From: an uncultured Syntrophomonadaceae bacterium
GTDB lineage: Bacteria > Bacillota > Dethiobacteria > DTU022
Direction: 5' to 3'
NCBI GenBank assembly: GCA_964436815.1
Contig: CAYTER010000002.1
Location: 15,401 to 79,400, forward strand
Length of the DNA stretch: 64,000 nucleotides
The notes under the pieces were generated by a model that had not been told where the DNA came from, did no database searches, and saw only the letters and a program-made list of their open reading frames with translations. A program made the position numbers and the translations under genes. Shown here piece by piece: positions 13,352 to 23,785 of the stretch; the first letter of the stretch is position 1, and the number at the start of each line of letters is the position of its first letter.

Positions 13352-13415
13352 AGGCTGTCAAAAACCCTCCTGATTATTAAACGGCAAACTGATTATATCA
13401 TAATGTTTTCGTTAA

Positions 13416-13447
13416 AGAGGGCGCAGCGTTTGGCAGCTGCGCCCTCT
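13416..13447. terminator. Strong hairpin terminator at the 3' end of the formate dehydrogenase operon
   Basis: 12-bp perfect GC-rich stem AGAGGGCGCAGC-gtttggca-GCTGCGCCCTCT, flanked by T-rich sequence. It lies 32 bp downstream of the fdhA stop. Confidence 0.75.
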
Positions 13448-13478
13448 TCCAATTTTGTAATCTAGCGTAAATGCCAAG

Positions 13479-16151
13479 CTAGACTTTGTCAATCCGGATC
13501 GCGCAAACCTTGGTTTCCGGGGTCTTCGCCACCGGGTCAAGGGCATTGCTGGTCAGCAGGTTTGTCGGGCACTCGGCAAAGTGGAAGCTCAGTGAAGCGA
13601 CACCCGGTTGACTGCGCCTGGAAATCTTGACCCTGACCTGAATTTTACCCCGCCGCGATTTGACTTCCACCAAATCCCCGTCAGCAAGATTCATCTTTTC
13701 AGCATCCAGGGGGTTAATCAGGATCTGTTCTTCCCCGCTCAGCTGGTCAAGCCCTTCAGAATACCTGGTCATCGTGCTATGGAACTGGTAGAGGCTGCGT
13801 TCGGTAGTAAGAATCAACGGAAAATCAAAGTCACAGCATTCGGCTGAAGGCCTGAACTCGATGGCCGCCAGCTTGCCTTTGCCGGTTGGAGTAGCAAATT
13901 TCTCAGTATGCAGGATTCGTGTCCCCGGGTGATCCTCTGCCGGGCAGGGCCACTGGAGCCCGCCGGTTTCAAGACGCTCATAAGTGATCCCGGCATAACT
14001 TGGCGTCAGAGAGGTCATTTCCTTAAAAATCTCCTCCGCACTGTTGTAGGCAAAACCTTCGACTCCCATCTCATTGGCAATAGCACTGATAATCCACCAA
14101 TCAGGCTTGGCTTCACCAACCGGATCAATAACCCGGCGCACGCGCTGGACGCGTCTTTCCGTATTAACAAAAGTGCCGTTCTTTTCAGCGAAAGATGCAG
14201 CCGGAAGAACTACATCAGCTTTCTGAGCCGTTTCATTGAGGAAGATATCCTGAACGACAAAAAATTCAAGTTTGTCCATCGCCTCGATCGAATGGGCGGC
14301 ATTTGCTTCTGTCAGAACCGGGTTTTCCCCAACCAGGTAGATCGCTTTGATCTCACCATTATAGGCGGCGTCAAAGATTTCAGTATGGGTTAACCCCGGC
14401 TTTCCACTGAGAGGTACGCCCCAGGCTGTTTCAAATTTCTTGCGGGCTTCTTCGTTGTCAACTTTCTGGTAACCGGTAAAGACATTGGGCAGGGAGCCCA
14501 TATCACAGGCACCCTGAACATTGTTCTGGCCGCGCAGGGGATTAACACCGGCTGAAACACGCCCGAGATTACCGGTGATCAGGGCCAGGTTGCTGACCGC
14601 CAGAACGTTATCAGTGCCGTGCGAATGCTGAGTGACACCCATGCAGTAGAGAATCGATGCCGGGCTGTTTTCAGCATAGATCCGCGCTGCTTTGGCGATA
14701 TCATCCCAGGGCAGCCCGGTCATGTCACTGACAAATTCCGGGGTGTAGCTTTCAAGCGACTTTTTAAACTGTTCATAATTCTCACAGCGTTCTTCAATAT
14801 ACTGCTGATCATGAAGCCCTTCTTCGATGATGACCCTCGCCATACCCATCAGGAGGGCTACATCACTGCCCGGTTTTAATGGCAGGTGAAGATCGGCAAA
14901 ATTAACCAGGGCAACTTCCTGAGGATTGGCAACAATCAACTTAGCCCCGTTGCGAACCGCTTTTTTAACCTGGTAACCGATAATGGGATGGGCATCCGTC
15001 GTGCTGGTTCCAACTGCCAGGATGCATTTTGCATCGCCAATTTCGGCTATCGAGTTGGTCATTGCTCCCGAACCCAGTGCTATGGCCAGACCGGCCACGG
15101 TAGGAGCGTGTCAGAGGCGGGCGCAGTGATCAATATTATTAGTTTCCATCACTGCCCGCGCAAATTTTTGCATCACATAATTGTCTTCATTAGTGCATTT
15201 TGCCGAAGCAATCATGGCAAATTGATCGCCTTTGTATTGCCCCAGTTTGCTTGCTATGAGCGACAGAGCTTCTTCCCAGCTTGCCTCGACCAGTTCCCCG
15301 TCCTTACGGATTAAGGGGTGTGTCAGCCGGTCCGGGTGATTGACAAAACCAAGGCCGTAGCGGCCCTTTACACAGAGACTGCCGCCGCTTGCCGGGCTGT
15401 CTGCTACAGCTCGCGAACTGACAACCCTGTTGCCACGCGCTCCTACGACAATGCCACAGCCGCATCCACAGAAGGGGCAGATAGTTTCAACTTCGTAAGT
15501 TGGTTCAATCGCTTTGCGGGGCACCAAAGCGCCGACCGGGCAGCGCGATACACATTCGCCGCAGGTAACACACGTTGAATCGATGATCGGTTTATCACCG
15601 AGAACACTGATCTTGGTTTTCATCCCTCGAAAAGCGAAGTCTATGCAACTGTCACCCTGGATCTCTTCACAGGTGCGTACGCACACCCCGCAGAGAACAC
15701 ACTTGTTCATATCGCGTAAATAATAGGGGTTGGAATCATCTAATGGATGATCAAGAACCGGTTTACGCATCGCCTTGATCCGCTCTTCATCCAAACCAAT
15801 ATAGCGGGTTAACTCCTGCAGCTGGCAGCGGCTGTTTTTGGCACAGCTCTGGCAGTTATAGTCATGATTAAGCACAAGCAGCTCCAGGTTAACCCGGCGG
15901 GTCTGATCCAGATCGGCGCTGGCTGTAGTGACAACCAGCCCTTCTTCAACTGGGGTCATACAGGATACAGTAGGTCTGCGCCCCTCAATCTCCACCAGGC
16001 AAACCCGGCAGATCCCGACTGAGGTAAGGTCGGGATGATCACAGAGATGAGGGATATAGATCCCGTTGGCCAGGGCAGCATGCAGGATTGAGGTGCCCGA
16101 TTCAGCCTGAATTTCCACTCCATCGATAGTCAGGGTAATTAGCTCTGACAT
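13479..16151 (-). CDS. fdhA: Selenocysteine-containing formate dehydrogenase catalytic subunit (NAD-linked FdhA/FdsA type with NuoG-like N-terminal Fe-S domains). The ORF track shows it as two ORFs (13479-15098 and 15111-16157) because of an in-frame TGA at 15111-15113.
   Basis: The 15111-16157 ORF ends ...NIDHCARL-TGA. The reading frame then continues unbroken (all codons in phase) as [20 protein letters not shown]... into the next ORF. This matches the conserved Sec context of FdhF/FdnG (xRV-U-HGP[ST]VA...GxGAM[ST]N). The N-terminus has 2Fe-2S and 4Fe-4S Cys clusters, and the C-terminal part is a molybdopterin oxidoreductase domain. The start is likely the second ATG (MSELITL), where GAGGAGGG is spaced 6 nt. 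Confidence 0.85.
15060..15110 (-). promoter_or_regulatory. Candidate SECIS hairpin immediately 3' of the UGA in fdhA mRNA
   Basis: The mRNA after the UGA reads CACGCUCCUACCGUGGCCGGUCUGGCCAUAGCACUGGGUUCGGGAGC. An outer GCUCC/GGAGC pairing and an inner GGCC-GGUCU-GGCC stem-loop are possible within ~45 nt of the UGA. Confidence 0.4.
15111..15113 (-). other. In-frame UGA selenocysteine codon of fdhA
   Basis: TGA on the minus strand separates two abutting in-phase ORFs. It falls at the conserved Sec position of molybdopterin formate dehydrogenases. Confidence 0.8.
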
Positions 16152-17992
16152 TTGCATCCCTCCTCACATGGTATATGTTCTTCGGCCTGGGGCAATCCTT
16201 CTGAGACTACCAGTACCGCCCGTACCTTTTTGGGACAAACCTCGTAGCAGGCTCCGCACTTGGTGCATAAATCCTGATCAATTTCGTGCGGCTCTTTCTT
16301 CTCCCCACTGATCGCTTCAACCGGGCACTCCTTGGCACAGCGCTGGCAACCGATACATTTCTCCTGGTCTATGCGGTACTGAAGCAGCGCTTTACAAACC
16401 AGGGCCGGGCAGCGTTTTTCATTAACATGGGCCTCATATTCATGGTGGAAATATCGCAGGGTGGTTAAAATCGGGTTGGGGGCAGTTTGTCCCAGACCGC
16501 ACATCGAGCCCTTTTTAACAGCCCAGGCCAGTTCCTGGAGCAGGTCGAGATCTTCCGGTTTGCCGCGTCCCTCGGTAATATCCTCTAAAATTGTGTACAT
16601 CTGGGCCGTTCCAAGCCGACATGGTATACACTGACCGCAGGATTCGTTCTTGGTGAAATTTAAAAAATAGCGGGCCATGTCAACCATGCAGGTGTCTTCA
16701 TCCACGACAACCAGTCCTCCGGAGCCCATCATCGCTCCGGCTGCGGTTAGTGAATCAAAATCGATTGGCAAATCAAGATGTTCTTCGGGAATACAACCGC
16801 CCGATGGGCCACCGATTTGGGCTGCTTTGAATTTTTTACCGAAGCGAATACCACCGCCGATATCGAAAACAACTTCCCTGATCGTAACACCCATCGGCAC
16901 TTCAACCAAACCGGTGTTGTTAACCTTTCCGGTTAAGGCAAAAACCTTGGTGCCCTTACTGCCATCGGTTCCAACTGCAGCAAATTGCTCCGACCCGCGA
17001 CGCAGTATCAACGGGACATTAGCCAGGGTCTCCACGTTATTAATACAGGTGGGTTTACCCCAGAGACCCTCAACCGCCGGGAACGGCGGACGGTGGCGGG
17101 GCACACCCCTTTTACCCTCGATCGATGCCAACAGGGCTGTTTCTTCACCACAGACGAAAGCGCCGGCGCCTTCCTTGATCTTGATCTTAAAGTTAAAACC
17201 TAATCCCAGGATATTATCACCAAGCATCCCGTATTTTTCAGCCTGGCTGATGGCTGTGCGCAAGCGTTTGATGGCTAACGGGTATTCGGAGCGTACGTAG
17301 ATATAACCTTCGTCAGCGCCGATTGCCCGTCCAGCAATCATCATTCCTTCAAGCACGGCATGGGGATCCCCTTCGAGCAAACTGCGATCCATAAAAGCTC
17401 CGGGGTCGCCTTCGTCAGCATTGCAGACAATATATTTCTTTGAACCGGCGCTGCTATTGGCAAACTGCCATTTCATCCCGGTGGGAAACCCGGCCCCACC
17501 GCGACCGCGCAAGCCGGAAGATTTTACTTCGTTAACAACGGCCATCGGCTCCATCTGGAGCGCTTTCTTCAAACCCAGGTACCCACCCCTGATAATATAC
17601 TCATCTATATTTTCGGGATCAATTACCCCACAGTTGCGCAAAGCCAGCCGCATCTGCTTATTGTAAAACATGATTTCATCATGGGAGACCACCCGCTCCC
17701 CGGTAACCGGGTCGCTGTAGAGCAATCGCTCAACTTTGTTGCCCTTGACCAGGTATTCTTCAACGATCTCAGCTACATCTTCTTTTTGAACCCCACAATA
17801 GAAAACATCATCCGGAAAAACAATAAATATTGGCCCTTTTTCACAGAAGCCGTGACAGCCGGACATAATTATGCGCACATCGTCCTGTAACCCGTGCTTT
17901 TTCAGCTCTTCATCAAGGGCATCCCTGACATCCAGGGCCCCTGACGAAATACAACCGGTACCGGCACAGATCAGAATATGACGTTCATACAC
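16139..17992 (-). CDS. NuoF-like NAD(H)-binding flavoprotein (beta) subunit of formate dehydrogenase/hydrogenase, with an N-terminal thioredoxin-like 2Fe-2S domain and C-terminal 2x[4Fe-4S] ferredoxin domains
   Basis: 617 aa. It has GAGAF NAD-binding and FMN-binding regions and an ESCGQCIPCR 4Fe-4S motif. The C-terminus has CIGCQRCAKECP and CTKCGACYEVCP ferredoxin motifs. It overlaps the fdhA start by 19 bp. Confidence 0.85.
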   Translation of the reverse strand: MYERHILICAGTGCISSGALDVRDALDEELKKHGLQDDVRIIMSGCHGFCEKGPIFIVFPDDVFYCGVQKEDVAEIVEEYLVKGNKVERLLYSDPVTGERVVSHDEIMFYNKQMRLALRNCGVIDPENIDEYIIRGGYLGLKKALQMEPMAVVNEVKSSGLRGRGGAGFPTGMKWQFANSSAGSKKYIVCNADEGDPGAFMDRSLLEGDPHAVLEGMMIAGRAIGADEGYIYVRSEYPLAIKRLRTAISQAEKYGMLGDNILGLGFNFKIKIKEGAGAFVCGEETALLASIEGKRGVPRHRPPFPAVEGLWGKPTCINNVETLANVPLILRRGSEQFAAVGTDGSKGTKVFALTGKVNNTGLVEVPMGVTIREVVFDIGGGIRFGKKFKAAQIGGPSGGCIPEEHLDLPIDFDSLTAAGAMMGSGGLVVVDEDTCMVDMARYFLNFTKNESCGQCIPCRLGTAQMYTILEDITEGRGKPEDLDLLQELAWAVKKGSMCGLGQTAPNPILTTLRYFHHEYEAHVNEKRCPALVCKALLQYRIDQEKCIGCQRCAKECPVEAISGEKKEPHEIDQDLCTKCGACYEVCPKKVRAVLVVSEGLPQAEEHIPCEEGCKCQS

Positions 17993-18034
17993 TTAGCCTC
18001 TCTCCTTTCTTAGATCCCCAACCCTGTTCCGGCT

Positions 18035-18214
18035 TCAGTGTTCCCGAAAAGCCGAGCCATGTGAATACTTATTGATAATCGCTTCACGGGCTGCTTTACA
18101 CTCTTCATTTTCATGACATAGAGGCCCTTCCAGACAGCATTCGATAAAAACATCGCAGGGTCTCTCCTTACTGTTGAAACACTTTTCACAGCAATGATCG
18201 ATAAAATGCTCCAT
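18035..18214 (-). CDS. Small cysteine-rich protein (59 aa, 8 Cys) inside the formate dehydrogenase operon. It is absent from the ORF track because it is shorter than 60 aa.
   Basis: Its ATG directly abuts the TAA of the upstream NuoE-like gene (TAAATG). It translates to MEHFIDHCCEKCFNSKERPCDVFIECCLEGPLCHENEECKAAREAIINKYSHGSAFREH. Its stop lies ~40 bp before the AAGGAGAGAG RBS of the NuoF-like gene. Confidence 0.45.
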   Translation of the reverse strand: MEHFIDHCCEKCFNSKERPCDVFIECCLEGPLCHENEECKAAREAIINKYSHGSAFREH

Positions 18215-18688
18215 TTAAGCTTGCCCCCCTTCAGGTTCGCCGCCGAAGCTCTCGATTATACCTTTCGTTTTATCCGGGTCTAGCTTGCCGAATGTTTTAT
18301 CGTCTATGGTCATAACCGGCGCCAACCCACAAGCTCCGATACAGGCAACTTCTTCGTAGGTATATTGCTGATCGGCTGTGGTTTCGCCGACACTGACTTT
18401 CAGAACATCCTTAACCTTATCGGCCACTTTTTTAGCGCCACGAACATGACAGGCTGTTCCACAGCAGAGGCGGATTATATGCCGGCCGCGTGGCTTCAGA
18501 TGAAAGCGGGCGTAGAAGGTGGCCACCCCGAAAACCTTGCTCTCAGGAACACGGACAAAACGGGCAACCGCTTTCATTGCCTCTTCGGGTAAATACCCCA
18601 GCTCTTCCTGAACATTCTGCAGCACAGGGATTAACTCATTTTTTTCGCCTTTAAATGAAGCAAATACTGTTTGCAGTTGTTCTTCCAT
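18215..18688 (-). CDS. NuoE-like 2Fe-2S (gamma) subunit
   Basis: 157 aa, with the thioredoxin-like 2Fe-2S motifs CCGTACHVRG...CIGACGLAP. Confidence 0.85.
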   Translation of the reverse strand: MEEQLQTVFASFKGEKNELIPVLQNVQEELGYLPEEAMKAVARFVRVPESKVFGVATFYARFHLKPRGRHIIRLCCGTACHVRGAKKVADKVKDVLKVSVGETTADQQYTYEEVACIGACGLAPVMTIDDKTFGKLDPDKTKGIIESFGGEPEGGQA

Positions 18689-18976: not shown

Positions 18977-19480
18977 ATGTTACCAAAAAAACTTCTGGCG
19001 AAATTAAATGAACAGATTACTCATGAATTTTATTCCGCACATTACTACCTGGCCATGGCTTCCTATTTTAAAAAAGAAGAACTTGACGGTTTTGCAAACT
19101 TTTTCATAGTCCAGGCTGAAGAAGAACGGTCCCACGCTATGAAATTTTTCGAATTTATCAATGACCAGGGTGAAGAAGCGTTGATTACCGGTTTTAAAGA
19201 TCCAAAAAGGGATTTTAAATCAGTGGAAGAGATTTTTACCCTGGCTCTTGAGCACGAAAAACTGGTCACCGGTTTAATCACTGAACTGATGAAAACCGCC
19301 CAGGAAGAAAAGCATTACCCCAGTATCGGCTTTTTACAGTGGTTCATTGATGAACAGGTCGAAGAGGAAGCTTCAATGAGCAGGCTGCTGAGTCTTGTAA
19401 AGCGGGTGGGCGAGCAGGGCCATGGCATCCTAATGCTGGATCGCGAACTTGCCGGCCGCATTTTTACGCAGGAAGCGTAA
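18977..19480 (+). CDS. Non-haem ferritin
   Basis: 167 aa ferritin-like four-helix bundle with ferroxidase ligands (E..EExH, QWFIDEQVEEE). A strong AAAGGAGG RBS sits upstream. Confidence 0.85.
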   Translation: MLPKKLLAKLNEQITHEFYSAHYYLAMASYFKKEELDGFANFFIVQAEEERSHAMKFFEFINDQGEEALITGFKDPKRDFKSVEEIFTLALEHEKLVTGLITELMKTAQEEKHYPSIGFLQWFIDEQVEEEASMSRLLSLVKRVGEQGHGILMLDRELAGRIFTQEA

Positions 19481-19522
19481 AAATATACAAAGCTAAACCG
19501 CTTTATTTTAATGAATTTTATG

Positions 19523-19556
19523 AAGGAGGATTCAGATAATTTCTGGAATCCTCCTT
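19523..19556. terminator. Bidirectional hairpin terminator between the convergent ferritin and DUF2284 genes
   Basis: Stem AAGGAGGATTCAG...CTGGAATCCTCCTT (13-14 bp) followed by a T-rich tract. Confidence 0.7.
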
Positions 19557-19578
19557 GATCTTTTCTTGCAGAAAAAGT

Positions 19579-20133
19579 CTAATTGATCATTAAAATTGCA
19601 TAACGATTCATTTCCTGATCATAGCTGCTCAGGACTTCGATTGGATAACCGGCGTTGCGAACAGTTGAAAAAACATCGACAGCCAGCGATTCAGGGCCCG
19701 GCCGCGCATCATCTTTATGGATACACCCTTCCCGTGTCCCGGTACAATCACTGCATAAACGACATTCATCCATGAAAAGCATAAAGGCTTTATAATATCC
19801 TGCCCAGAAAACTTCCCGCTCTATTTTGATCAGCTTCTGACTGAGATCTTTACTCCAGGGAATCCGATCGAGAGGTTTCTCCAGCTTCTTGACAAAATGA
19901 AAAAGCACGGCATCTGTATACTCATTAAAGAAGGCCCTGCATTCATCCACCGGCGGTACTTGCGGGGGACAGGTTCCCTTTTTGCCATAACTGGTGCAGC
20001 CAAACATACACTTGAACCGCACCCAGTTGGCAACCTCGATCGCTGAAGCCTTGATCCATCGATAATCATCAAAACCGTGGCGCTTAAAGATTTGATCCAA
20101 TTCACTGTGTTTAATGATGACGCCCCCCCGCAT
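19579..20133 (-). CDS. DUF2284-type predicted metal-binding protein (Cys-rich)
   Basis: 184 aa with CMFGCTSYGKKGTCPP and CRLCSDCTGTREGC cysteine clusters. It is the last gene of the Mo-hydroxylase operon. Confidence 0.6.
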   Translation of the reverse strand: MRGGVIIKHSELDQIFKRHGFDDYRWIKASAIEVANWVRFKCMFGCTSYGKKGTCPPQVPPVDECRAFFNEYTDAVLFHFVKKLEKPLDRIPWSKDLSQKLIKIEREVFWAGYYKAFMLFMDECRLCSDCTGTREGCIHKDDARPGPESLAVDVFSTVRNAGYPIEVLSSYDQEMNRYAILMIN

Positions 20134-20149
20134 CTACCGCAACAGGATC

Positions 20150-20626
20150 TTAACGGCTTAACAATTCTTTTGCTTTTTCAATTGAACGGTTAATCCCTTC
20201 ATAGCCTGTACAGCGGCACAGGTTACTCTGCAACCAGTCGCGGGATATTTCTGCTGAAGCGTCCGGGTGCTTTTCCAACATAGCGTAAGCATTGACCAGA
20301 AAACCGGAAGTGCAGAATCCACACTGATAGCCGCCTTCCTCAAGAAATGCTTTTTGGATGGCTGTATCTTTCAGTCCTTCAACAGTTATGACTTCTCTTC
20401 CCTGTGCTTCAACCGCAAGCACCAGGCACGATTTAACCGGAACCCCGTCAAGCAGTACCGTGCAAGCCCCGCAATCTCCGTTCTCACAACCCGGTTTGGC
20501 GCCAGTCAGACCGAGTTTTTCACGCAGGACCCGCAACAGGGTGTCTGCAGGTCTTACCACAACCTGCCTTTTCTCATTGTTAACATTCAATGTAATTTTG
20601 TTGACTCCCTTTAGATAGACGTCCAT
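20150..20626 (-). CDS. Molybdenum hydroxylase small subunit, [2Fe-2S]-binding (CoxS/XdhC-like)
   Basis: 158 aa, with CENGDCGACTV (plant-type 2Fe-2S) and QCGFCTSGF...CRCTGY (second 2Fe-2S). Confidence 0.85.
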   Translation of the reverse strand: MDVYLKGVNKITLNVNNEKRQVVVRPADTLLRVLREKLGLTGAKPGCENGDCGACTVLLDGVPVKSCLVLAVEAQGREVITVEGLKDTAIQKAFLEEGGYQCGFCTSGFLVNAYAMLEKHPDASAEISRDWLQSNLCRCTGYEGINRSIEKAKELLSR

Positions 20627-21462
20627 CAGCGACCCTCCATTTCCTTCAGCAGCAGCGCCAAATCCTGCTCGAAGAGGGCTCTGCGGTAGGCCGCAGAACC
20701 GCGATCATCATCATTAATTTTGCCAGGCAGGTTTTCAGGGATTAACCGGGCTAAATCCTCTGGCCGCCCTTCATACTCACTGATCACCCGTTCCAGTTCT
20801 TCGCTGCGAAAAGCAAAAGAGCAAAGCCCTGATACAGCGATTTTAAGTCTTCCCTGATCCCTGACCGAAACCAGGTGATAAAGAGGATAATCAACCGGGC
20901 CGTGTTTCTCACGGCGCCTGGTCCAGTAAGGCAGGTCAAGCTTTTCCACCGCTACTCTAAACTGCAGCAAGATCTCGCCTTTCCCGAGTTTCAAGCGTTT
21001 ATCAAAAAGGTTTGATATTTTCTCTGTTCGCTGACCGTCTGGTCCAATCACCAAGAGCTCGGCATCGGCCAGCAGAAAGGGCAGCACCGCTTCACGGTAA
21101 GGCAGCCGGCCGCAAATATTTCCTCCCAGGGTCAGACGGTTACGAACAGTGTGATCGGCAATCCTGCAGACCGCTGCCGACAGCAACGGATATTGCTGAT
21201 CCTCGGCAATCCTGTTCAAGACCAGGTTGGCCCCAACCAACAGCTGCCCGTCTTTTCTCTCAAAAAGCAGTGTTTCACTGATCTGTTTCAAGTCGATCAG
21301 CGCTTTTGTTTCAACCTTCTGCTGGCGGCAAAAAGTGATAATTTCCGTTCCACCGGCATAGTAGAGAGGTTTTTTCTGCTCAGCTTTTAATTTCTGAAAA
21401 TACTCGACCGCTTCAACTGCTGTCTGCGGAAGATAGTAGTCGAAATCAAAGGGTATCATCAT
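20626..21462 (-). CDS. Molybdenum hydroxylase FAD-binding medium subunit (CoxM/XdhB-like)
   Basis: It has YYAGGTEII and LGGNICG FAD-binding motifs. The track ORF (to 21696) includes a 78-aa antisense-derived extension. The likely start is MMIPFDFDYY, behind GGGGG and overlapping the large-subunit stop (TAATG). Confidence 0.8.
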   Translation of the reverse strand: MMIPFDFDYYLPQTAVEAVEYFQKLKAEQKKPLYYAGGTEIITFCRQQKVETKALIDLKQISETLLFERKDGQLLVGANLVLNRIAEDQQYPLLSAAVCRIADHTVRNRLTLGGNICGRLPYREAVLPFLLADAELLVIGPDGQRTEKISNLFDKRLKLGKGEILLQFRVAVEKLDLPYWTRRREKHGPVDYPLYHLVSVRDQGRLKIAVSGLCSFAFRSEELERVISEYEGRPEDLARLIPENLPGKINDDDRGSAAYRRALFEQDLALLLKEMEGR

Positions 21463-23785
21463 TAGCCCCCCTTCCAGCTTCCCAGATACTCTGTGGAGTA
21501 AGCGGGAGGCGATTGAGCTGCCGTCCGAGAGCCCTGGAAAGCGCCCCGGCCAAAGCGCCGGGCATTCCCAGCACACCCTGTTCGCCCAGGCCCCTGGCGC
21601 CAAATGGGCCGTCCCTCTGGGGTGATTCAACAAATTCAACCATGTAGCGCGGCTCTTCCCCATAACGCATGATTTTGTACCCGCGCAGGTCATCATTATT
21701 TACTCTGCCCTGACTGTTGAGATTGAATCCTTCCCACCCGGCGAATCCGAGGCCCATTGACATCCCTCCGACAATCTGGCCGTGGGCCAGAAAGGGATTA
21801 ATGACCTTACCCACATCCATGGCGCAGACCGCCTTTGTAACCTTATATGTCCCATCAGCGGGGTTCAGCTCAACCTCAATACCCTGGGCACCCATCGTCC
21901 ATTCCAGGGCCGGGTGTCCAGCGCCAGTTTCCGGATCAATGGCCGTTAACCGGCGTGAAATATAGCGGCCAACGCCGATCACCTGTCCCTCAATAGCGTT
22001 GCCTTCGGGATAGACATAACCGAGGGCTACTTCAGCCAGGGGCAGACCGATTTCCGGTTCATCAGCCAGGTAGACTCTTCCGCCTGATACCTTCAAATCC
22101 TCCGGCGGACAGCGCAGGACAATCGCCGCTGTCCTGCAGAGCTGACGGATAGCATCATCGGCTGCTTCAAGCAAAGCCCGGCCGATCATAAACAGACTGC
22201 GACTGGCCGCTGTTGCCCAGTCATGCGGCGCGACGCGGGTATTAACTTCACTGACAATGTGCACCTGGTCGGGGCTGATGCCCAGTTTTTCCGCAAGAAC
22301 CTGGGCCAGGGCGGTTTTTATACCCTGCCCGATCTCAATAACCCCACAGTGCAGATTAACGGTTCCATCTTCATTAAAAGTCAGAATCGCCCCGCCGTCG
22401 GCATTTGTGGGCATTGCCGGCGCTTTCCAGAAACAGCTGACACTTTTTCCGCTCACCCGGCCGTCCGAAAGCTCAGCGCGTTGTCCATTCTGCCAATCCA
22501 GCATAACCCCAACCCGTTTTAAGCATTCCCTGAGATCACCGGTGTTCGCGTCCATCACGCTCTGGGTTGGTGTAGCATCGCCGGTCTTGATTGCATTTAT
22601 TATTCTGAACTCAAGTGGATCATAACCGGCTTTTTCACTAAGCAGATCTACAGCCCGCTCCATGGCAAAAGCCAGCTCTATATGCCCGAAACCCCTGTAA
22701 GCGGTGGCAAAGGGATGGTTGGTATAAACACAAAGGGAATCACACCAGATGTTCGGAATCAAGTAGGGCCCGGTGCAGGCTATCGCAGCAGCCCGGCTGA
22801 TGTTTACCGCATAATCGGCATAAGCGCCGCTGTCAAAGCAAAAATAGATCTCAGCAGCCTGCAGTTTTCCATCCTGCGTGCAGCCCAGCTTGATTTTAGC
22901 CTCAAGTCCGGTCCGTCCCGGTGAGGAGACAAGATCATTTTCACGGCTGTTCACCAGCCTGACCGGTCGCCCGCCAACAGCTTTTGTCAGCAGGTAGGCC
23001 AGTCCTTCTAACTGAATTCCGGCTTTTCCTCCAAAACCGCCGCCAAGAGGACCGGTAATCACCGTAATTTTACCGGGAGGCAGGTTAAAAGCTGTCGCCA
23101 GTAAACTGCGCACTACAAAAGGAGCCTGGGTGGTGGAGTGGATCACTACCTGTCCGTCCTCAAGAATTTCTGCGGTTGACGCCCTGGTTTCCATAGCAAC
23201 ATGATCGCCGGGAGGAAAACTGAAGAAACCGGAAACCACAAAATCGCAGTTCTTAAAACCCTGCTCTGTGTTACCTTTGCGAATTTTAGTCCTGTTGGCA
23301 ATATTACTTCCCGGTTCGGGGAAAATCGCCGGTATGTGGCTGTAAGCAGCCATCTCTTCATGCAAAATCGGGGCTCCTTCGGCCAATGCCGCACCGGGAG
23401 AGTCAACAACCGGGAGGGGTTCATATTCTACGGTAATCAAAGGCAGGGCCGCAATCGCTTCGGCTTCACTGTCTGCAACAACAGCGGCAACCGGCTCACC
23501 GTAATGGCGAACCTTACCACGGGCCAGCGGCGGTTTATCACCGAGATAAATTCCGATATTACCGGGTATATCGGCACCGGTCAGTATAGCGCGGACGCCT
23601 GATGATTTGAGAGCCGCCGATACATCAACCTTGATGATCCTGGCATGGGCATGAGGGCTTACTTTTATAACCGCATGAAGAAATTCCGGTGACAAGTGAT
23701 CGTTTAAGTAGCGTAATTTGCCGCGAACCTTATCCGGACCGTCTTTACGCGGAACCGATACTCCAACATACTGTTCTTCAGCCAT
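21446..23785 (-). CDS. Molybdopterin-binding large subunit of a xanthine dehydrogenase/aldehyde oxidoreductase family enzyme
   Basis: 779 aa with the aldehyde oxidase/xanthine dehydrogenase a/b hammerhead and MoCo-binding domains. GGTGGAGGGA RBS upstream. Confidence 0.85.
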   Translation of the reverse strand: MAEEQYVGVSVPRKDGPDKVRGKLRYLNDHLSPEFLHAVIKVSPHAHARIIKVDVSAALKSSGVRAILTGADIPGNIGIYLGDKPPLARGKVRHYGEPVAAVVADSEAEAIAALPLITVEYEPLPVVDSPGAALAEGAPILHEEMAAYSHIPAIFPEPGSNIANRTKIRKGNTEQGFKNCDFVVSGFFSFPPGDHVAMETRASTAEILEDGQVVIHSTTQAPFVVRSLLATAFNLPPGKITVITGPLGGGFGGKAGIQLEGLAYLLTKAVGGRPVRLVNSRENDLVSSPGRTGLEAKIKLGCTQDGKLQAAEIYFCFDSGAYADYAVNISRAAAIACTGPYLIPNIWCDSLCVYTNHPFATAYRGFGHIELAFAMERAVDLLSEKAGYDPLEFRIINAIKTGDATPTQSVMDANTGDLRECLKRVGVMLDWQNGQRAELSDGRVSGKSVSCFWKAPAMPTNADGGAILTFNEDGTVNLHCGVIEIGQGIKTALAQVLAEKLGISPDQVHIVSEVNTRVAPHDWATAASRSLFMIGRALLEAADDAIRQLCRTAAIVLRCPPEDLKVSGGRVYLADEPEIGLPLAEVALGYVYPEGNAIEGQVIGVGRYISRRLTAIDPETGAGHPALEWTMGAQGIEVELNPADGTYKVTKAVCAMDVGKVINPFLAHGQIVGGMSMGLGFAGWEGFNLNSQGRVNNDDLRGYKIMRYGEEPRYMVEFVESPQRDGPFGARGLGEQGVLGMPGALAGALSRALGRQLNRLPLTPQSIWEAGRGANDDTL

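Follow-up and report, generated by a model that had tools for sequence, protein, structure and literature searches.

A stand-alone CCxxC NuoF-prefix protein, a putative metal-binding subunit, encoded between nuoE and nuoF in a formate dehydrogenase operon of an uncultured Syntrophomonadaceae bacterium

Introduction

Some NADH-dependent [FeFe] hydrogenases possess small thioredoxin-like subunits that are encoded between the NuoE-like and NuoF-like genes, HydD in Caldanaerobacter subterraneus and HndB in Solidesulfovibrio fructosivorans. A small accessory protein is likewise part of FdsABGD, a formate dehydrogenase that contains a NuoEF module; this protein, FdsD, is to our knowledge not rich in cysteine and binds no metal. 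In mitochondrial complex I, NDUFS6 is a zinc-binding accessory subunit.

The NuoF-like subunit of HydABC, NiFe-HydABCSL and NfnABC, referred to as HydB or BfuB, is present in several solved structures (7q4v, 8a6t, 7p5h, 7t2r, 9n5u). In HydABC, the N-terminal thioredoxin-like domain of HydB, with cluster B2, has been described as flexible, and the C-terminal domain of HydC, with cluster C1, as moving between 'in' and 'out' positions that are proposed to gate bifurcation (PMC10021017). A Zn2+ site made of Cys and His residues has also been described in HydB (PMC10021017).

The window analysed here is a stretch of 64,000 nucleotides from an uncultured Syntrophomonadaceae bacterium (assembly GCA_964436815.1, contig CAYTER010000002.1). 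A sequence-only reading of the window had pointed out a 59-aa ORF with eight cysteines at positions 18035-18214, inside a formate dehydrogenase operon, and had suggested that it encodes a small metal- or Fe-S-binding protein. The ORF, its family and its likely place in the enzyme complex are described below.

Results and discussion

The small ORF and its signals

The ORF at 18035-18214 is real and lies on the minus strand, which the sequence-only reading had left out. It reads from 18214 to 18035 in 59 codons, with an ATG start at 18214-18212 and a TGA stop at 18037-18035, and the translation given earlier, with its 59 amino acids and eight cysteines, was identical on re-reading. The product has a mass of 6.8 kDa and its cysteines are C8, C9, C12, C20, C26, C27, C33 and C39. 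As had been described, the ATG directly follows the TAA of the nuoE-like gene (18217-18215), forming a TAAATG junction; the sequence around the start, read from 18260 to 17950, is ...GAAGGGGGGCAAGCT-TAA-ATG GAG CAT... A Shine-Dalgarno-like sequence, GAAGGGGGG (18224-18232, minus strand), is found within the 3' end of nuoE, 9 nt upstream of the ATG. This layout, with the Shine-Dalgarno sequence within nuoE and the TAA abutting the ATG, is also present in the closest relatives (L006, L008 and L014).

The stop codon had been placed about 40 bp before the RBS of the NuoF-like gene. It is in fact 42 nt before the GTG start and approximately 26 to 29 nt before the RBS, which is AAAGGAGAGAGG at 18008-17997. 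Besides this RBS, the 42 nt spacer (17993-18034, minus strand) contains, immediately ahead of the GTG, a TAA in frame. In the window, nuoF and the small ORF share a frame and are separated by two stops (TGA and TAA). A second 59-codon ORF with a GTG start (18010-18189, minus strand) overlaps the small ORF in another frame; as the same frame has 1 to 4 stops in 14 relatives, it was rejected as a gene and is seen as a chance ORF.

The host operon

The gene order is nuoE, small ORF, nuoF (hydB-type) and fdhA (with selenocysteine), and matches to Pfam and NCBIfam bear out the earlier description of the neighbours as NuoE-like and NuoF-like genes of an fdh operon with FdhA. NuoE (18215-18688, minus strand, 157 aa) is a HydC-type thioredoxin-like [2Fe-2S] subunit (PF01257, E=5e-51; NCBIfam NuoE, 158 bits). 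NuoF (16139-17992, minus strand, 617 aa, GTG start at 17992) is of the HydB/BfuB type by its Pfam domains and its alignment to HydB. It contains an N-terminal thioredoxin-like [2Fe-2S] domain, an FMN/NADH core and a C-terminal 2x[4Fe-4S] ferredoxin domain, and matches HydB of bifurcating hydrogenases from end to end (7t2r_B at 1e-267, 7q4v_B, 8a6t_B; all E<=1e-243). The matches to FdsB of non-bifurcating formate dehydrogenases are far weaker (1e-130 to 1e-114). The window NuoF is thus an end-to-end homologue, with the same architecture, of the HydB/BfuB subunits in the solved HydABC, NiFe-HydABCSL and NfnABC enzymes. With both extra domains on NuoF and a NuoE partner, as seen in Pfam matches and alignment, the host complex is, by its domain architecture, a bifurcating-type NuoEF module. 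It differs from the solved enzymes in that these are without a prefix domain and in that its catalytic partner is a selenocysteine FdhA, not a hydrogenase.

The alpha subunit of the formate dehydrogenase, FdhA (13479-16157, minus strand), combines a NuoG-like Fe-S N-terminus with a molybdopterin domain (TIGR01591, 662 bits). The gene has an in-frame TGA at 15113-15111 (minus strand; ...NNIDHCARL-U-HAPTVAG...), the usual position of selenocysteine. From 6 nt downstream of this TGA there is a stem-loop (approximately 15063-15107) with a GGUCU apical loop and a dG of -20.7 kcal/mol, for which the z-score is only -1.4. The stop is at the same position in 13 other loci, representing 12 independent relatives since L008 and L009 are duplicates, and the FdhA of L013 has Cys in place of selenocysteine (HCARLCHSPT).

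Several other features surround these genes. The C-terminus of NuoF (16139-16180) runs some 30 residues past the HydB alignment and ends in ...IPCEEGCKCQS, with three more cysteines, and the 3' end of nuoF overlaps the start of fdhA by 19 nt. There is a promoter-like site upstream of nuoE. A perfect GC-rich palindrome with a 13-bp stem (13415-13448), 30 nt downstream of the fdhA stop and before a rhomboid-family gene, is probably the operon terminator; the scan flagged this palindrome on the plus strand only. Upstream of the operon are a divergent ferritin gene (18977-19480, plus strand), a gene for a DUF2284 protein (19579-20133, minus strand) and genes of a xanthine-dehydrogenase-family molybdoenzyme, all within 18977-23785: the small 2Fe-2S subunit (20150-20626), the FAD subunit (within 20626-21696) and the large subunit (21446-23785). 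This ferritin, DUF2284 and molybdoenzyme neighbourhood is kept in relatives L008 and L009.

Family membership and database status

The product of the small ORF matches the NCBIfam model NF040902.1 (NuoF_pre_CCxxC), in full the CCxxC motif-containing NuoF prefix domain-containing protein, over model positions 1-49 of 53, and its score of 59.9 bits (E=1.6e-16) is above the curated cut-off of 45. The domain is ~50 residues long. The product is almost certainly a member of this family, with which it shares the Cys/His pattern and the place right ahead of NuoF; the only difference is that it has the minority, stand-alone form and not the N-terminal fusion. All 63 sequences of a diverse set of these domains match NF040902 and no other NCBIfam model.

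Pfam has no family for the small ORF, the only match being to GCN1_N at chance level (E~0.1). The 63 family members likewise gave only chance-level matches in Pfam, including one to PHD_3 at E=0.009. No match to a Fer4 family, Fer2 or rubredoxin was found in Pfam at E<=1, either for the small ORF or for the 63 members. The earlier statement that the product does not resemble FdsD is confirmed by the lack of any FdsD match in Pfam or NCBIfam at E<=1. PF01257 is also without a match in the small ORF and is found instead in NuoE and at the N-terminus of NuoF. Sequence searches of the PDB, both with the single sequence and with the domain profile, retrieved no homologue, and a literature search found no mention of the CCxxC NuoF-prefix domain.

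A word-indexed protein search identified 14 stand-alone homologues of 59 aa, with 66-100% identity; run with the family profile, this type of search gave little beyond the close stand-alone clade. With the HMM, 1.84 billion representatives were searched exhaustively and 62 clusters identified. In most of these clusters the domain forms the N-terminus of a NuoF-like protein, and in some it comes after a NuoE domain. The identical protein is present in ENA and Logan assemblies, in which it is called as a gene. PGAP gives the NCBIfam name to 59-aa relatives in MAGs of Bacillota and Dethiobacteria, and IMG labels relatives as 'NuoF' or 'hypothetical'. The ORF had been presented as unannotated. This is true of the ORF track used at the time, with its 60-aa limit, but not of the public gene callers, of PGAP, which names its relatives, or of NCBIfam. 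Both the gene and the family are already known, being catalogued as NF040902 and named by PGAP in close relatives; the family is uncharacterised.

Conserved residues and predicted fold

The family signature, CC-x2-C-x7-C-x5-C-x6-CH-x4-C, is present in the window ORF. Seven cysteines and one histidine within 32 residues (C8, C9, C12, C20, C26, C33, H34 and C39) are invariant in the alignment of 63 sequences, an invariance that is slightly circular since the alignment was built partly with a filter for the cysteine pattern. The same eight residues are invariant in two further alignments, and 68 of 75 proteins retrieved by HMM fit the cysteine pattern unaided. C27, the second cysteine of the second CC pair, is not conserved in the family. 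The proposal that the paired CC motifs indicate metal binding is therefore probably right as to the metal, on the strength of the invariant residues, but not as to the second pair. Position 14 is His in most family members and Asn in the clade of the window. A compensating swap of ligands between H14 and C27 was considered and rejected, as some members are without both.

AlphaFold2 (AF2) modelling on the 63-sequence alignment gave a coil-rich two-helix knot with a mean pLDDT of 93 and a pTM of 0.70. In this model, residues 1-22 are coil, including the CCxxC motif and C20, and are followed by a helix (23-29, with C26), a loop with C33 and H34, and a second helix (37-50) that starts near C39. 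A two-domain AF2 model of the prefix with the thioredoxin-like domain has the same prefix fold (pTM 0.67), with a weaker linker and an uncertain relative orientation of the domains. Foldseek found 0 matches to the AF2 model in the PDB at E<=10, and the solved HydB and NfnB chains are without the prefix domain, their alignment with a fused homologue beginning in every case no earlier than residue ~60 of the latter.

The presence of seven invariant cysteines and one invariant histidine in 32 residues suggests that the protein folds around metal. Taken with the confident, coil-rich AF2 fold, this makes it very likely that the product is a metal-binding protein. Two tetrahedral sites, Cys4 and Cys3His, would fit the eight invariant ligands best, and the CC and CH dipeptides could each give one ligand to each of the two sites. 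The metal may be zinc, with a structural function, or iron or Fe-S, which would be redox-active. The cysteine spacing fits no known Fe-S or Zn motif, and CxxCxxCxxxCP motifs are absent. Two-zinc cross-brace knots of the C3HC4 type have the same ligand count, seven Cys and one His, but their spacing differs and there is no profile or fold match. To NDUFS6, a small Cys/His module that binds metal and transports no electrons, there is a likeness by ligand count only. The same applies to the Zn2+ site of HydB (PMC10021017).

Distribution of the domain

For a census of the domain, one genome per GTDB species was searched for a degenerate DNA pattern that represents the Cys/His signature, a search that is biased towards the canonical spacing. 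It gave at least 120 matches. Approximately 100 of those listed were confirmed by the family HMM and, with the addition of contig look-ups, at least 105 non-redundant loci were obtained. Among these loci, 81 encode a fusion of the prefix to NuoF, 3 a NuoE-prefix-NuoF triple fusion and 15 the stand-alone form; in the other 6 the domain is broken off by a contig end or a frameshift. In all of the loci, wherever the DNA extends, the domain sits between NuoE and NuoF, either adjacent or fused. The expectation that a small ORF would be found in this slot in related operons is borne out, by the stand-alone 59-aa ORF in 15 independent genomes listed and by the domain itself in at least 105 loci.

The carriers among the matches listed belong to more than 10 phyla, including Bacillota, Ignavibacteriota, Bacteroidota, Myxococcota, Bdellovibrionota, Acidobacteriota, Actinomycetota, Chloroflexota, Planctomycetota, Verrucomicrobiota and the archaeal Thermoproteota. 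Desulforamulus putei (DSM 12395), Desulfotomaculum copahuensis and Stygiobacter electus are cultured carriers. The stand-alone loci listed are all from Bacillota (Dethiobacteria or Syntrophomonadaceae-like).

Where the catalytic partner is visible, it is HydA in at least 40 loci, FdhA in at least 19 and a NiFe hydrogenase in at least 3. Pfam confirmed [FeFe] HydA downstream in L012, L026 and L084, large and small [NiFe] subunits in the archaeal L038 and L046, and NuoG-like proteins with FdhA in Bacillota loci. Among the matches listed, FdhA is the partner in 13 of the 13 stand-alone loci whose length allows one to be seen. As the partners elsewhere are [FeFe] or [NiFe] hydrogenases, the domain is not specific to formate dehydrogenase. 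Five archaeal loci from Thermoprotei and Desulfurococcales MAGs (L038, L046, L054, L078 and L123) have the prefix-NuoF fusion together with a short NuoG-like protein and large and small [NiFe] subunits, an arrangement like that of HydABCSL that carries the CCxxC domain.

The thioredoxin-like domain that follows the prefix (residues ~60-110 in loci L010-L129) has only three of its four canonical cysteines in 64 of 84 fused proteins. In this three-cysteine form, found in non-Bacillota prefix-NuoF fusions of which most are linked to [FeFe] hydrogenase, ICAGTGC is changed to IGxGTCG. All four are retained in the Bacillota proteins, the window NuoF included. Most of the prefix-bearing enzymes may have a different cofactor here.

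The stand-alone form

The small ORF aligns to residues ~1-55 of prefix-fused Bacillota proteins, and from residue ~63-78 onwards, in their NuoF part, these proteins share 60-68% identity with the window NuoF. ORF and NuoF are therefore colinear with the fused protein. In the 15 genomes listed, every stand-alone ORF is exactly 59 aa, with its own Shine-Dalgarno sequence and an ATG, GTG or TTG start. The relatives also have a conserved C-terminal tail and a dedicated Shine-Dalgarno sequence and start for nuoF. Since the spacer between ORF and nuoF ranges from 11 to 98 nt in the relatives, in mixed frames, the ORF is regarded as a separate gene. The best reading is gene fission, through which the domain would have been split off as its own 59-codon gene in one Bacillota clade, within an fdhA operon. 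A fusion to NuoF through selenocysteine or read-through was considered and rejected, given the second in-frame stop (TAA) that follows and the mixed frames of the relatives.

Between stand-alone ORFs, non-synonymous differences are 0.13-0.39 per site, whereas synonymous differences, at ~0.85, have reached saturation. For the 18 stand-alone pairs with a finite dS, dN/dS has a median of 0.125, and the alternative reading frames of the small ORF are closed in relatives. By these comparisons, the small ORF is under strong purifying selection.

The nuoE stop abuts the ORF start (gap 0) in 4 of the 15 stand-alone loci, these being the window and its three closest lineages; the other 11 have a gap of 18-109 nt and a Shine-Dalgarno sequence of their own. 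Translational coupling to nuoE, as had been proposed, is thus plausible for the window and these lineages but is not a trait of the family. Two MAGs each have two operons of the type nuoE, 59-aa ORF, nuoF and fdhA (L006 and L061 in JAWODD01; L014 and L021 in JBNJHN01). One operon of each pair is of the subclade of the window (CFNS...YSH..REH tail) and the other of a second subclade (CTHT...FVIC tail), which indicates that the stand-alone arrangement has been duplicated and maintained.

Possible roles in the NuoEF module

The best overall explanation, and a probable one on the sequence comparisons, is that the product is a putative small metal-binding subunit of the NuoEF module that arose through fission. 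That it is a bound subunit is, going by the pattern of fusions, very probable. The 6.8-kDa protein would be a stoichiometric subunit of the NuoE/NuoF flavoprotein module of an NAD(+ferredoxin)-linked selenocysteine formate dehydrogenase, and the TAA-ATG abutment and its own Shine-Dalgarno sequence would keep its synthesis matched to that of NuoE. In the fusions, the prefix immediately precedes the domain of B2, and the triple fusions have it right behind that of C1 as well. Because of these positions, the 59-aa protein is likely to dock at the B2/C1 region, where it would be placed next to the two thioredoxin-like [2Fe-2S] domains, HydC C1 and HydB B2.

The small ORF corresponds to an N-terminal add-on that HydB-type NuoF proteins have in other organisms. 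In this it is comparable to HydD and HndB, small subunits from the same genomic slot whose separate genes encode what is the N-terminal domain in other HydB proteins. HydD and HndB, however, are the thioredoxin-like [2Fe-2S] domain itself, whereas in the window that domain stays in NuoF (residues 1-~100). The small ORF has a different, smaller and coil-rich predicted fold, without PF01257. FdsD is comparable as the small accessory protein of a formate dehydrogenase that contains NuoEF, but there is no sequence similarity between the two, and the window NuoF is far closer to bifurcating HydB than to FdsB.

For the function of the domain, a role that is mainly structural or tuning is preferred, tentatively. 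A rigid knot, held by metal, would position or tether the mobile N-terminal domain of NuoF. The domain seems to be an accessory add-on that the bifurcating core does not require, because all solved active enzymes bifurcate without the prefix. It is nevertheless a real possibility that the domain is an extra redox-active centre, either an Fe-S cluster (possibly ligated by His or by vicinal Cys) or an Fe(Cys)4 site like that of rubredoxin or desulforedoxin, by which the electron path would be extended or branched at the B2/C1 end; ferredoxin or another partner might, for instance, gain one more point at which electrons enter or leave. All other cysteine clusters in these subunits bind Fe-S, the domain is situated between two thioredoxin-like [2Fe-2S] domains, and vicinal cysteines are iron ligands in known centres such as NuoB cluster N2 and desulforedoxin. 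The adjoining thioredoxin-like domain, with three cysteines in 64 of the 84 fused proteins, also points to a cofactor set unlike that of characterised HydB. However, the number of invariant ligands, eight within 32 residues, is that of a two-metal knot and fits no known motif for a single or double cluster, and the Fer4 and Fer2 families of Pfam have no match. Active bifurcating enzymes work without the domain, and the family is found in Acidobacteriota, Actinomycetota and Myxococcota, in which an exposed extra cluster would be a liability. It is somewhat unlikely, in particular, that the prefix is an unrecognised redox or sensing centre of Bfu (HydABC-type) enzymes, a putative extra Fe or Fe-S site between the mobile thioredoxin-like domains. 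Such a centre would add an electron entry or exit, or would gate the movement of the thioredoxin-like domains according to redox state or metal.

Readings that place the protein outside the working enzyme, or that deny it a gene, are disfavoured by the fusion pattern and by the independence from the catalytic partner. The sequence-only reading had allowed for either an extra subunit or a maturation factor; the former is the best reading, while the latter, as a factor specific to formate dehydrogenase after the manner of FdhD, FdhE, FdsC or FdsD, is very unlikely indeed. A small, cysteine-rich product from within an fdh operon would suit such a factor, and FdhA is downstream of all the stand-alone copies listed wherever the locus is long enough, but the domain is fused to NuoF in at least 81 loci and bridges NuoE and NuoF in at least 3, its partner among the matches listed is more often an [FeFe] or [NiFe] hydrogenase than FdhA, and it resembles neither FdsD nor any other family in Pfam. 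That the protein is a mini-ferredoxin or a carrier like rubredoxin, diffusing freely to or from the formate dehydrogenase, is distinctly improbable. Its size of 59 aa and its ligand count do resemble those of clostridial 2x[4Fe-4S] ferredoxins; against this, the CxxCxxCxxxCP motifs and any Fer4 or rubredoxin match are missing, and the fusion to NuoF in most lineages indicates a fixed position in the complex. A last reading treats the ORF as an artefact, in which a frameshift, a nonsense mutation or faulty assembly has interrupted the N-terminus of NuoF, or in which read-through joins the two. The shared frame of small ORF and nuoF in the window would agree with this, but two in-frame stops intervene there. 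The same 59-aa ORF, with its conserved tail, the nuoF Shine-Dalgarno sequence and start, and mixed-frame spacers of 11-98 nt, is present in 15 independent assemblies, and the ORF is under purifying selection. The artefact reading is effectively refuted.

Conclusions

As a discovery the small ORF is ordinary, since the gene is real but its family is already catalogued. Its value is as a lead on an uncharacterised domain. At least 100 species from more than 10 phyla have this prefix attached to the flavoprotein subunit of their HydABC/Bfu-type enzymes, with three types of catalytic partner. It adjoins the thioredoxin-like domains that have been proposed to gate bifurcation, is absent from the solved structures, and went without mention in the literature found by the search. 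The stand-alone 59-aa form is a natural 'domain excision', which can be expressed alone or deleted without truncating NuoF. If the redox or sensing reading were true, the prefix-bearing enzymes would be a mechanistically distinct and widespread Bfu subclass, spanning more than 10 phyla including archaea, that is represented by no solved structure.
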